Below are positions 8,010 through 13,868 of a DNA stretch of 30,414 bases, one piece after another; within the stretch, counting starts at the first letter, position 1, and every line of letters starts with the position of its first letter. The notes beneath the pieces were generated by a model. It saw only the letters and a list, made by a program, of their open reading frames with translations. It was not told the origin of the DNA and did no database searches. Source of the stretch: a virus (lineage: Duplodnaviria > Caudoviricetes); IMG/VR virus record IMGVR_UViG_3300037789_000017, positions 1-30,414 of that record; one strand, given 5' to 3'. A program made the translations under genes and the position numbers.

Positions 8010-8193
8010 TCCGCTCGTAGCATCCGAACCAGCCCGCCACACGCGCTCACGCATACGCGCACGCACGAGCTATCCACGGGGGAAATGCAAGGTTGCATAG
8101 GTCTAGCTGTTGCTGGACCACGGCAAGGCACAGCATAAAACCTAAGCAAAACAGCGGCTTACAAGAAAAATGCACCTAGATGCAAAAAAGGTG

Positions 8194-8222
8194 TTTACAT
8201 CTCGTTCGCCAAGCTGCATAAC
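8194..8222 (+). promoter_or_regulatory. Host sigma70-type early promoter
   Basis: -35 TTTACA (8194-8199), 17-bp spacer, -10 CATAAC (8217-8222), with A-tracts upstream resembling an UP element. A -10 lacking the final T is common in alphaproteobacteria. Confidence 0.65.
8208..8220 (-). promoter_or_regulatory. Putative operator TATGCAGnnTGGC overlapping the early promoter
   Basis: Reverse complement reads TATGCAGCTTGGC; the same motif recurs at 6738, 9438, 12509 and 16611. Confidence 0.55.
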
Positions 8223-8228
8223 TGTCTT

Positions 8229-8600
8229 ACCGAAACGACGGGGCGCCACGCTCCACCGGGTCGGGATTCCGAGGGGCCTGAGCGCAAGCCCGCCCTGAGG
8301 TGGCAACCGGTGCGGCAAGCAAGGCCCGGCGGGAAGGCCCTTCGATATGGCCCGAGATAGGTGGAAGGCCTTACGCGGTTCAAGGCGGGGTGACCTGCAG
8401 GATACGCGGCAGACATAGCGGGACGAACCCGCACCATAGCAGGGGCCAGCCGCCCGAAGACATATCACCGGCTGGGCGTCGAAACCGAACGCGGCATTTG
8501 AAGCAAAGTGTCGCCCAGAGGGACTAGGCGCAGGGGAGTGGGACCGCCTTGATAGGGGCATCCACAATGGCCATGCAGAGCCGCTTCCACTTGTTCGGTC
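8229..8600 (+). ncRNA. Putative large structured leader RNA of unknown class
   Basis: No credible ORF. Nested complementary segments: 8361-8366/8585-8590, 8375-8379/8580-8584, 8380-8388/8544-8552, 8394-8398/8439-8443, 8418-8422/8428-8432, 8446-8452/8469-8475, 8512-8515/8527-8530, 8254-8259/8307-8312. The 5' end is inferred from the promoter. Confidence 0.55.
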
Positions 8601-8665
8601 CAGAGCTATGCCATGTGGCATTTGTCGCTCTGCTGATGAGGCCCAGAAGGCCGAAACCGAACAAG
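8590..8665 (+). ncRNA. Hammerhead ribozyme, type III (cleavage after C8600)
   Basis: Stem III CTTGTTCGG 8590-8598/CCGAACAAG 8657-8665; GUC site; stem I CAGAGC 8601-8606/GCTCTG 8627-8632; core CTGATGA 8633-8639; stem II GGCC/GGCC; GAAA 8653-8656. Confidence 0.93.
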
Positions 8666-8676
8666 GGGAGAGACCC

Positions 8677-9435
8677 ATGGCCAAAGCTGGCAAAACCTTC
8701 ATCATCTACGACGGTCCGTCATTGCTGGATGGGGAACGTATCATCGTCCTAGCTCAACAGGGCAGCACGAACCGCAAGACTGGCGGTATGATGCAGACCT
8801 ATATCCTTCGTGCTGACATGGACCCGATCACCGCAAGCCGCACCGGGGCTGATTTCTCGATCTGTGGCAACTGTCCACACAAGGGCAAGGCACACGACGG
8901 GGACAGCGGACAAGCCAAGGATCGCACCTGCTACGTTACGCTGGCCCATGGTCCGCTTGGCAAGTGGAAGGCATGGCAGCGCGGGGCTTACGAGGCTATC
9001 AACGGCCATGCCGCCATTGCTGCAGCCGGGGCCGGTCAGATGGTCCGCATTGGCACCTATGGCGACGGGGCCGCAGTGCCCTCTTACATCTGGGACAGCT
9101 TGTGCTCCGATGCTACCGGCTGGACCGCCTACACCCACCAGAACGGGGTGGACGGGGCCGCGACCGATCCTAAGCGCTACATGACCAGTGCTGAAAGCGA
9201 AGGCCACGCACAAGCTGCATGGGCCATGGGTCAGCGGACGTTCCGTGTGATCGCTGACGTTGCTGACGTGGTCAAGGGCAAGGAAATCTTGTGCCCTGCC
9301 AGTGAGGAAGCTGGGATGCGGACCACCTGCGAGAAATGCGGTCTCTGCGCTGGGGCAGCGGTCAAGGCGAAGTCGATTGCGATTGTCGCCCATGGCACCG
9401 CCAAGCGCAAAGCGAAGGCCCTTGTTGCGGCGTGA
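8677..9435 (+). CDS. First early gene: Cys-rich, probable Fe-S/radical-SAM-like enzyme
   Basis: ATG 8677 with SD GGGGAG, 252 aa. Motifs 'CGNCPH...CYV', 'VRIGTYGD', 'YTHQ', 'CPAS...CEKCGLC'. The family call is from memory of similar phage proteins. Confidence 0.7.
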   Translation: MAKAGKTFIIYDGPSLLDGERIIVLAQQGSTNRKTGGMMQTYILRADMDPITASRTGADFSICGNCPHKGKAHDGDSGQAKDRTCYVTLAHGPLGKWKAWQRGAYEAINGHAAIAAAGAGQMVRIGTYGDGAAVPSYIWDSLCSDATGWTAYTHQNGVDGAATDPKRYMTSAESEGHAQAAWAMGQRTFRVIADVADVVKGKEILCPASEEAGMRTTCEKCGLCAGAAVKAKSIAIVAHGTAKRKAKALVAA

Positions 9436-9436
9436 T

Positions 9437-9453
9437 CTATGCAGACTGGCAAA
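9437..9453 (+). promoter_or_regulatory. Putative operator, 17-bp exact repeat of 16610-16626
   Basis: CTATGCAGACTGGCAAA, intergenic in both places. Confidence 0.6.
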
Positions 9454-9520
9454 GGCGAAACCGTCCAGCGATGGGCGGTCTGGCCGGGATGGGTTCCCGG
9501 TCACTGATGAGCCAACCCAT
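9454..9520 (+). ncRNA. Hammerhead ribozyme, type II with pseudoknot (cleavage after C9480)
   Basis: Stem II GGC 9454-9456/GCC 9511-9513; GAAA 9457-9460; stem III CCGTCCA-GCGA-TGGGCGG; GUC site; stem I TGGCCGGGA/TCCCGGTCA; CTGATGA 9504-9510; tail AACCCAT 9514-9520 complements ATGGGTT 9489-9495. Confidence 0.93.
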
Positions 9521-9533
9521 AGGAGAGAAAACC

Positions 9534-10538: not shown

Positions 10539-10600
10539 TGACGCATCGCCTGTAGCCCTCGCCTGAGGGGGCTGCAGCACCATGCGCCAACGCATGAGCT
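10539..10600 (+). repeat. Structured intergenic element copy 1 (RNase III-site-like)
   Basis: TGACGCATCG + hairpin + CCATGCGCCAACGCATGAGCT; the flanks are identical in copy 2. Confidence 0.7.
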
Positions 10601-10622
10601 TGAACCACATGAGGAACCCACC

Positions 10623-10949
10623 ATGAGCACCAACAAAATCCGCACCCGTCGCCGCACCATCCGCAAGCTTCTGGATGGTCTCGAGGGGCGCTTTGTGTCT
10701 GTCACGTTCGCCAAGAAAGATGGCACCATCCGCAAGCTGACGATCCAGCCCCACGCTGTCGCCACACACCTCGCCGTGAACCCTTCACAGGCCGGTCTCA
10801 AGGCTGCCCGCACACGTCTCGAGCGTTACCCGAACCTGCTTCCCGTCTATGACGTGGCCGCTGGCCGGATCAAGTCGATCAACCTCGACAAGGTGTCTTC
10901 GATCCGCGTGGACAAGTCCGAACTGCTTGTCATGGAGGGTGCTGCCTGA
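10623..10949 (+). CDS. SH3/Sm-like beta-barrel protein (WYL_2-like)
   Basis: 'FVSVTFAKKDGTIRKL...VYDVAAGRIKSINLDKV' pattern; SD GAGG. Confidence 0.7.
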   Translation: MSTNKIRTRRRTIRKLLDGLEGRFVSVTFAKKDGTIRKLTIQPHAVATHLAVNPSQAGLKAARTRLERYPNLLPVYDVAAGRIKSINLDKVSSIRVDKSELLVMEGAA

Positions 10950-11006
10950 CGCATCGGTGTCCGCCCTGCCAGCCGGGGCGGCATCCCATGCGCCAACGCA
11001 TGAGCT
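10947..11006 (+). repeat. Structured intergenic element copy 2 (RNase III-site-like)
   Basis: TGACGCATCG 10947-10956 + a different hairpin + CCATGCGCCAACGCATGAGCT 10986-11006. Confidence 0.7.
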
Positions 11007-11025
11007 ACCACATAGGAGAACCCAC

Positions 11026-12368: not shown

Positions 12369-13412
12369 ATGTCCAAGCAGCTACCCAAAGGCATCCGCAT
12401 GAGGGGTGCCAAGTACTTCGTTGATGTGACGGTCAGCGGGAACCGCCACACTGCCACCTGCGAGACGCTTGAGGAAGCCATTGCTACTCGCCTTCGCTTG
12501 CGTGGTGCTATGCAGGTTGGCCTTGATCCACGCACACCACGGGCCAACGCCAAGGGCTGGACCCTGCAGGAAGCGCTCGACAAGGTACTGTCCCTGCCCA
12601 AGCCTGAGGGCTGGCGTGGCTGTAGCTACGAGAACATCGCCCGCATGAACGTAGAGAGTGCAATCGAGGTCATGGGTCCTGACGTGCCACTGGCATCCAT
12701 CGACCGGGACATGATCGACCGTTGGCTGGCCGCGTGTGAAGCCAAAGGCAACAGTGACAGCACGATCAACCGCAAGATCAGCGCCCTGTCCAAGGTGCTC
12801 AAGACTGCCGTCGCTTTCGGGGGTCTGGCTGCCATGCCACACATGCCGAAGCTCAGGAAGGAAGCTGTTGGCAGGATCAGGCAGATCAGTGAGGCCGAAG
12901 AGCGTTCGATGCTCGACACGTTCGTCCAGCTCGGGATGCTCGACCACGCCGCTGCTGTCACTGTACTGATCGACACCGGCCTCCGCTGCTCTGAGCTGTG
13001 GAACGTGCGGGCCGAGGATGTTGACCTCAAGTCGGGGGTCATGCTGGTCTATGGGGCCGAGGGCAAGGGCACGAAGAACGGCAAGTACAGGTCGGTGCCT
13101 ATGACCAAGCGGGTGAAGCAGATCATGGGACGCCGCGCCGGTCAACCTCAGCCTTTCCCCTACGACAACACGTGGCTGCGCCACCCATGGGATCGGGTGC
13201 GTGGGATGATGGGTCTCAGCGGGGACAAGAACTTCGTGCCCCACGTCTGCCGCCACACCTGTGCTTCCCGTCTGGTCAAGGCCGGGGTCTCCCTGCCTGT
13301 GGTCAAGGACTGGCTCGGTCATGCCTCGATCACGACGACGATGAAGTACGCACACCTCATGCCACAGGACCTGATGAGGGCCGTGGCTGCACTGGAAGGA
13401 GACGCAGCATGA
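12369..13412 (+). CDS. int: Tyrosine recombinase / phage integrase
   Basis: Catalytic R (TGLRCSE), K (TKNG), HxxR (HVCRH), LGH and Y (TMKY); N-terminal arm-binding-like segment. Confidence 0.95.
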   Translation: MSKQLPKGIRMRGAKYFVDVTVSGNRHTATCETLEEAIATRLRLRGAMQVGLDPRTPRANAKGWTLQEALDKVLSLPKPEGWRGCSYENIARMNVESAIEVMGPDVPLASIDRDMIDRWLAACEAKGNSDSTINRKISALSKVLKTAVAFGGLAAMPHMPKLRKEAVGRIRQISEAEERSMLDTFVQLGMLDHAAAVTVLIDTGLRCSELWNVRAEDVDLKSGVMLVYGAEGKGTKNGKYRSVPMTKRVKQIMGRRAGQPQPFPYDNTWLRHPWDRVRGMMGLSGDKNFVPHVCRHTCASRLVKAGVSLPVVKDWLGHASITTTMKYAHLMPQDLMRAVAALEGDAA

Positions 13413-13679: not shown

Positions 13680-13768
13680 GCGGGTGTGGTGGAACTGGTA
13701 GACACGCGGGATTTAGGTTCCCGTGCCTTTTCAATGGCTTGCAGGTTCGATCCCTGTCACCCGCACCA
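13680..13768 (+). tRNA. tRNA-Leu (anticodon TAG), 89 nt, CCA encoded
   Basis: Acceptor GCGGGTG/CACCCGC + ACCA; D-loop TGGTA; anticodon arm CGGGA-TTTAGGT-TCCCG; long variable arm; T arm GCAGG-TTCGATC-CCTGT. Confidence 0.95.
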
Positions 13769-13798: not shown

Positions 13799-13834
13799 CG
13801 TTCACCACCTCGCATCGGTGGCTGGAACACCAAC

Positions 13835-13868
13835 AAAGCCTCGGCATATTCGCCGGGGCTTTTTCTTT
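13835..13868 (+). terminator. Rho-independent terminator after the tRNA
   Basis: AAAGCCTCGGC-ATATTC-GCCGGGGCTTTTTCTTT. Confidence 0.85.

Follow-up and report, generated by a model that had tools for sequence, protein, structure and literature searches.

In the phage DNA analysed here (the window, 30,414 nt), a type III hammerhead ribozyme precedes the first early gene, gene 1, and its stem III is predicted to extend over the Shine-Dalgarno sequence (SD) and the start codon of that gene. In this predicted fold, the masking strand lies on the 5' cleavage product. On balance, we lean slightly towards a mechanism in which self-cleavage and loss of the leader release the mask and unlock gene 1, and a second hammerhead trims the mRNA. 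The features of this arrangement are the following:

8194-8222, + strand: candidate early promoter for the host polymerase (-35 TTTACA, 17 nt, -10 CATAAC), recognized by eye
8229-8600, + strand: non-coding leader of about 370 nt, the predicted 5' cleavage product; a mosaic (fold z = -2.08)
8568-8575, + strand: AUG-covering strand, predicted to pair with 8676-8683 (pairing probability 0.91-0.97)
8584-8588, + strand: anti-SD mask CTTCC, predicted to extend stem III past the one-nt bulge A8589 (pairing probability 0.99)
8590-8665, + strand: type III hammerhead ribozyme, complete fold, 54.7 bits with a phage-hammerhead model
8665-8670, + strand: gene 1 SD, GGGGAG, read from the sequence
8677-9435, + strand: gene 1 (252 aa, PHROG 2554 / DUF7227), with conserved cysteines and a weak likeness to the radical SAM fold
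9453-9521, + strand: type II hammerhead, Rfam RF02276 at 46.9 bits (cut-off 37), cut predicted after C9480

Phage, host and early region

The record contains genes for a T7-like RNA polymerase, a DNA polymerase, a primase/helicase, a terminase, an integrase and a tRNA-Leu, and based on this gene content it belongs to a temperate T7-like phage. The closest genomic relative of gene 1 (79%) sits in a Shimia MAG, so a Roseobacter-group alphaproteobacterium is the probable host. The site under study is the non-coding gap that separates the terminase gene from the first early gene. The candidate promoter was not reported by a consensus promoter scanner; by eye, a similar hexamer pair precedes a CGAA(A)CG start in four related loci (L005, L033, L194 and L206). 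Transcription would start near 8229, and the promoter at 8194-8222 implies a leader that is probably about 450 nt long.

Comparison with cultured phages gave no match to 8410-8600, and the nearest cultured RNA polymerases were 40-42% identical. Among 80 RNA-polymerase loci examined, no close early region of use for comparison was found. We also searched 401 family, 401 order, 401 class and 34 genus genomes, where gene 1 or the leader was present only in one (G001); short matches in 23 further genomes (E 1e-4 or weaker) were counted as chance. Finally, a tRNA-Leu(TAG) at 13680-13768 lies just past the integrase region (12369-13412) and is a possible attachment site, and a terminator-like hairpin was observed at 13830-13865 of the window.

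The type III hammerhead

According to its predicted fold, the element at 8590-8665 is a real type III hammerhead, with self-cleavage predicted, and we infer that it is active in vivo. Stem III is formed by 8590-99/8656-65, stem I by 8601-06/8627-32 with an added hairpin (stem I carries an 18-nt insertion) and stem II by 8640-43/8649-52; stems I and II are closed and stem III is open, with pair probabilities of 0.98-0.99. The core contains CUGAUGA (8633-39) and GAAA (8653-56), which agree with the CUGANGA and GAAA consensus, together with the U16.1-A15.1 pair and an NUH triplet, here GUC (8598-8600), after whose last letter, C8600, the cut is predicted.

The score of 54.7 bits was obtained with model R1, which was built without the window sequence from 44 other phage type III hammerheads out of 56 listed, near-duplicates being left out, and 15 out of its 15 pairs were standard in the window. 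The same model detected the hammerheads of L033 (51.3 bits) and L005 (45.6 bits) and gave no match in L194, L206, L004 and L034. With Rfam RF00008 the score was 18.2 bits, below the cut-off of 48.5, and stem III was mis-registered; this low score weakens only the score-based membership of RF00008. The UAUGC that follows stem I is common to the window, L005 and L033, and loop II opens with CAG in all three, in which pairing for a tertiary contact between loop I and loop II was drawn by eye only.

Gene 1 and the downstream type II hammerhead

Gene 1 has 3108 relatives at E 0.001 and contains the invariant cysteines C63, C66, C85, C206, C218 and C221, with two cysteine clusters. Its structure was predicted with high confidence (pLDDT 91). 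The top seven VIA fold matches were radical SAM enzymes, with Z of 3.0-4.1, which is below the trust level, and rmsd of 4.4-6.1; a Foldseek search gave no match at E 0.001. In its predicted fold, gene 1 may thus weakly resemble radical SAM enzymes.

In the type II hammerhead, UGGG of loop I (9490-93) can pair with CCCA (9516-19) in a pseudoknot, and an SD (AGGAG, 9521-25) and an ATG (9534) come after the ribozyme. Gene 1 is therefore flanked by two hammerheads (III and II) in the early region of a temperate phage, as in the prophage clusters discussed below. The layout of the window (promoter, leader, type III, gene 1, type II) is repeated in L005, where the type II hammerhead lies at the same place behind gene 1, and in L033 a type III precedes gene 1 and a type II was recognized after it by eye. 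Among 112 gene-1 loci scanned, L005 and L033 were the only ones with a type III upstream of gene 1. Five distinct relatives had a gene-1 identity of at least 72% and upstream DNA, and three of them (the L004 group, L034 and L194) carry no hammerhead upstream, which speaks against the mechanism that we favour.

Predicted masking of the ribosome site

The preliminary description of this DNA had proposed that CTTCC extends stem III over the SD of gene 1, and our analysis bears this out. In the prediction for the full transcript, CUUCC/GGGAG formed with a probability of 0.99 and stem III with 0.98. With the 5' product, 10.6 out of 14 nt of the ribosome site were paired, compared to 4.2 in shuffled sequences (p = 0.020; 250 dinucleotide shuffles of the 45-nt flank). 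The AUG helix (8568-75/8676-83), a local partner of the mask at 8534-41 and the second hammerhead at 9453-9521 had escaped that description. One pair of the AUG helix is broken by T8574C in related strains. The unpaired probability of the SD was 0.0 in the uncut RNA and 0.40-0.49 in the 3' product, and the predicted cost of opening 8664-82 was 16.0 kcal/mol uncut and 12.2 kcal/mol in the 3' product. The latter exceeds the cost at most other starts of the window (3.7-11.1, and one of 16.2), which is a point against release by cleavage.

Masks with other letters appear to recur in relatives: two were predicted, and two more were recognized by eye in strain variants. In L033, GUUCC/GGAAC is accompanied by pairing of 9.0 out of 15 site nt (p = 0.10 against shuffled flanks), and in L005, GCCUU/GAGGU by pairing of 5.9 out of 17 (p = 0.15); each test taken alone is non-significant and gives weak evidence, and both values count against the mechanism that we favour. 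In a strain contig (X3 record 4), the identical hammerhead (8591-8702) and SD follow a different leader that ends, just before stem III, in CACCUCCU. This string closely resembles the 16S anti-SD, and its pairing with the SD was read by eye. Another strain, represented by two contigs linked by inference, has a changed stem II and the SD AGGAGC, which is pairable by GCUUC as read by eye. That the mask at this locus is kept across relatives is moderately supported.

Proposed release of the mask by cleavage

In the mechanism that we favour, the host polymerase would make the early RNA and the ribozyme would be folded by 8666. RNA still uncut would settle with the SD and the AUG masked, while the cut after C8600 would free the 5' product carrying the mask, and the leader would refold on itself, leading to release. 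The second hammerhead would then trim gene 1 to its own mRNA, a 3' product that would start with the stem I hairpin and end at 9480. The outcome would be a processing-coupled, largely constitutive or timing device, in which good translation is confined to the cut mRNA, and not a regulated switch.

Predicted binding between the products dropped from about -36 kcal/mol for the bare duplex to -9.5 kcal/mol with the whole leader (about 0.2 micromolar). Blocking 8361-67, 8480-90 or the two together gave a dimer at -9.9 to -11.0. Net binding barely changed in this way, so release is plausible without these two segments (GUGGAAG and an 11-nt duplicate, see below), and refolding of the leader would be a general effect of its GC-rich composition.

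The two hammerheads might instead simply divide the early RNA into a leader and an mRNA of gene size with a hairpin at its 5' end, relevant to stability or dosage, a reading that we consider possible but doubtful. The pairing with the SD would then be incidental, being preceded by cleavage or by ribosome loading. In favour of this, hammerheads that flank single prophage genes are known and were described as active in vitro and in E. coli (PMC3088659). At length 8666, moreover, the predicted fold has the hammerhead formed, the mask held in leader module 2 (described below) and the SD free, so that ribosome loading may precede formation of the mask, and the ribozyme is predicted to reach this fold, with the SD unpaired, over zero barrier. 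The significance of the mask in the window and the anti-SD-like string that occupies the same position after a different leader argue against incidental pairing.

Masking across phage type III hammerheads

Two pattern scans recovered at least 59 unique phage type III hammerheads, including those of the window, L005 and L033. Among those listed, 55 have an ORF within 45 nt, with an SD in 49, a placement that agrees with plain processing. We scored 48 listed type III hammerheads with an SD, a set that excludes the window, which was scored separately with another flank length and shuffle, and that keeps L435 despite a doubtful SD call. Mean masking was 0.35, compared to 0.30 in shuffled flanks (Wilcoxon p = 0.70). 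Masking above 0.5 was found in 16 out of 48, and p < 0.05 in 7 out of 48 (binomial p = 0.009, with sequences that are not independent). As average masking was not above that of shuffled flanks, chance masks are common: SD masking is not general to phage hammerheads and often arises by chance. This result favours incidental pairing and weighs against release of a mask as the function of the cut. Conversely, masks were commoner in the listed type III hammerheads without an ORF end within 100 nt upstream (11/25) than in those with one (5/23), which argues against incidental pairing (Fisher p = 0.09, rank test p = 0.03, the related sequences not being independent).

Among the matches listed (L216-L464 together with the window, L005 and L033), we counted 237 unique hammerhead calls, 172 of which were of type I, and 126 out of these 172 had an ORF within 45 nt.

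Mosaic leader and its modules

The leader is a mosaic of conserved blocks swapped between strains, with joints in strain contigs that connect 8265 to 8439, 8191 to 8415 and 8225 to 8591. Two of its blocks were followed as modules:

8439-8483, + strand: leader module 1, 45 nt long and almost unchanged in L194 and L206
8527-8590, + strand: leader module 2, conserved in L206 and strain contigs, ending in the mask

An Rfam search of 8200-8700 with E up to 10 returned nothing except the hammerhead, and no Rfam family was matched by the leader modules. Likeness of the leader to SAM-I, c-di-GMP-I, ZTP, hairpin, HDV-like and twister-sister RNAs was considered and dropped because of misfits in order or pairing and the lack of an Rfam report. 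Copies of module 1 lie in L194 (2697-2741) and L206 (168-124, - strand), within leaders that are otherwise different and with or without a hammerhead, and the module is also present in the RNA-library contigs X8 and X9. In an exact-pattern search with the modules, L206 was the sole match. L005 (2801-2824) and L033 (280-304) have a common hairpin with a GAA/GGAA internal loop in leaders that are otherwise unrelated, and a looser look-alike of this hairpin occurs at 8347-8372 of the window.

One metatranscriptome contig of a related strain (X8 record 16) covers 8415-8593 and 171 nt further upstream, that is, leader only, and ends at 8593 in adapter, 7 nt before the predicted cut. This end fits a released leader RNA and is a weak hint from one contig, for which library DNA is possible, given that adapters follow any fragment end and an RNA library can contain DNA. 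RNA contigs X8 and X9 start 170-171 nt before 8415; this does not point to a start site, as the DNA contig X3 stops at 169. The missing RNA cover at 8594-8674 is uninformative because the strains differ there.

Module 2 contains the local partner of the mask, GGGAGTGG (8534-8541), and its closing helix would be formed by GGGAGUGG (8534-41) and CCGCUUCC (8581-88). This local helix was predicted with a probability of 0.55-0.61 at lengths 8590 and 8665, and for the mask taken by itself no better pairing was found (-14.3 kcal/mol). It is compatible with the hammerhead, leaves the SD free and brings the opening cost down to 9.2. For any alternative fold of importance, the local 8534-41 helix is a better candidate than the long-range pairings treated in the next section.

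A ribozyme-riboswitch hybrid, with the hammerhead as the release catch of an early non-coding RNA payload against the host and module 2 as a sensor, is unlikely in our judgement. In it, the payload would be the 370-nt modular leader, the SD mask would couple translation of gene 1 to its release, and module 2 could hold the mask and expose the SD in uncut RNA. We consider it quite unlikely that module 2 (8527-8590) is itself an aptamer or a protein-binding fold whose closing helix holds the mask, and rate in the same way the mode of action belonging to it, in which the bound form would have a free SD without cleavage and, in the unbound form, the mask would slide onto the SD until the cut. The conservation of module 2 and the properties of the local helix agree with such a sensor. 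It is opposed by the lack of an Rfam match and of a suggested ligand, by the two full copies of module 2, too few for covariation, by a predicted register that differs between the window and L206, and by L005 and L033, which have a hammerhead and a mask and no module 2 match.

Long-range pairings in the leader

The preliminary description had also proposed a switch gated by leader folding, in which GUGGAAG and an 11-nt duplicate would capture the mask and the 5' strand of stem III, block the ribozyme and free the SD. The segments involved are:

8352-8367, + strand: segment that could pair with 8584-8598; includes GTGGAAG and also lies in a local hairpin (8334-8372)
8480-8490, + strand: 11-nt duplicate of the 3' strand of the hammerhead; letters 1-4 form the invariant end of module 1, and the remainder varies

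Its strings and coordinates are exact (GTGGAAG 8361-67, CTTCCAC 8584-90, GGGAG 8666-70, GTTCGGT 8593-99 and ATG 8677), and the duplicate CGAAACCGAAC is found letter for letter at 8480-90 and 8652-62. Both pairings are also feasible in nascent RNA. A 15-bp helix (8352-67/8584-98) with GUGGAAG as its core has a probability of 0.93 at transcript ends 8595-8640, and the duplicate helix, at most 0.02 until 8640 and 0.4 at 8655-62, reached 0.94-0.98 when the pair span was limited to 120 nt or less. According to Findpath, whose barriers are heuristic upper bounds, 32-55 kcal/mol separate the traps from the ribozyme, in support of a switch, whereas about 18 kcal/mol would have to be overcome to enter either trap from the locally folded state. 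Both long-range pairings vanish once 8670 has been made, and they cost 6.6-6.9 kcal/mol at full length.

We compared these pairings with chance. The best duplex of the leader with 8582-8600 (-21.6 kcal/mol) was equalled by 21% of 2000 shuffled leaders; the GTGGAAG 7-mer was present in 113/5000 shuffles, and any perfect 7-mer complement to 8582-8600 in 1296/5000. Tested singly, the duplicate is rare (p = 0.0015-0.0065), and any repeat of at least 11 nt was found in 235/5000 shuffles of 8229-8680. Two separate 7-mer complements occurred together in 163/5000 shuffles, which, like the single test of the duplicate, favours the switch. The capture energy in the window was 12.5 compared to 10.6 in shuffles, was matched by 69 out of 291 of them, and is thus no stronger than expected; similar matching was observed in L005 (47/300) and L033 (190/300). 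Compared with chance, the SD mask is above it, the GTGGAAG helix is not and the duplicate is marginal.

Conservation of the duplicate in relatives, whose absence had been named beforehand as decisive against the switch, was found in two out of six module-1 carriers only: it is exact in X2, from nearly the same strain, and in X4 record 10, and it is changed in the other four, namely L206, L194, X3 record 3 and the strain of contigs X4, X8 and X9 (5/11 letters). L194 has no hammerhead, yet it keeps 9/11 letters of the duplicate. The X4/X8/X9 strain keeps 8581-93 to within one difference. The 8352-67 segment is missing from L206, L194 and X4 record 10 and unaligned in the X4/X8/X9 strain. X4 record 10 differs from the window by one letter over 8439-8569 and joins there from 8265, without 8266-8438 and thus without GUGGAAG; X3 record 1 keeps GUGGAAG and departs from the window at 8415. 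The two elements are therefore lost independently in close strains, and the strands of the mutually exclusive helices (8361-67 and 8480-90) are not kept across relatives. GTGGAA itself is found in all three full hammerhead-bearing leaders (window, L005 and L033), a point for the switch, but in L005 and L033 it is part of the local hairpin common to both, with predicted mask pairing of 0.02 and at most 0.19, and we rejected it as a conserved mask partner. The occurrence of the identical hammerhead behind a different leader also stands against the switch, which we regard as very unlikely. Out of the two routes by which the SD had been proposed to be freed, cleavage is likely, whereas gating by leader folding through 8361-67 and 8480-90 is unsupported.

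Comparison with known systems

In phage T7, the early transcript is processed by host RNase III, which cuts the polycistron between genes and removes a leader before the first gene; here, the cutters would be cis ribozymes and not a host nuclease. A natural hammerhead with an SD mask on the strand that is cut off would offer a concrete entry to the function of bacterial and phage ribozymes. The locus adds natural variants in which the leader is swapped and the mask apparently kept, as well as a mosaic leader outside the Rfam families. It also carries the lesson that chance can produce appealing alternative pairings when a leader is rich in GC.

The prophage clusters described by Perreault et al. 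2011 (PMC3088659) include Agrobacterium, Azorhizobium and Clostridium scindens, and the HHphage of HF1/HF2 heads an early operon. As described for those clusters, a type III and a type II hammerhead flank one early gene in the window, loop I and the 3' tail of the type II can form a pseudoknot, the gene is the first of the early transcript and an integrase is nearby (PMC3088659). Stem III in the window is predicted to lie over the SD and the AUG, unlike in PMC3088659, whose main text does not contain the words 'Shine', 'ribosome' or 'translation', and release of a mosaic leader of 370 nt would be a further difference from those clusters.

Engineered hammerhead and twister switches that mask the SD are described in PMC5052635: cleavage frees the SD and expression goes up, with a 5- to about 100-fold rise for the twister constructs. 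As in the design of Wieland and Hartig (PMC5052635), the SD in the window is predicted to pair with an anti-SD in a ribozyme stem; unlike those switches, the arrangement here is natural and predicted only, with the mask in a stem III extension on the 5' product. The glmS ribozyme (PMC6765202) likewise self-cleaves in a bacterial 5' leader and affects a downstream gene, but as described there it is cofactor-dependent and turns the gene off through decay, whereas cleavage here would turn translation on. The roles of bacterial ribozymes are described as largely elusive, and processing might alter stability or translation (PMC6765202). Our literature search, which covered few subscription papers, turned up no paper describing SD masking by a natural hammerhead of a phage.

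Other elements between early genes

In L033, the type II-like element after gene 1 (1201-1270) recurs after a later gene (1715-1748); this was observed by eye, and the descriptor gave no call. Arrays were observed in L197-L199 and L202-L205, with three to five type II calls each within 3.6 kb, located between small genes. Finally, we noticed a two-hairpin element at 10539-10605 and again at 10947-11012 of the window, as well as in L005 (4498-4559). An Rfam search of this element (10539-11012) gave no match at E up to 10. It lies between early genes just before an SD, in a hammerhead-like position; its 5' end (from the stop codon onward) and its 3' end are fixed, and both hairpins are variable in sequence. 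We consider it a candidate processing element or undescribed ribozyme.
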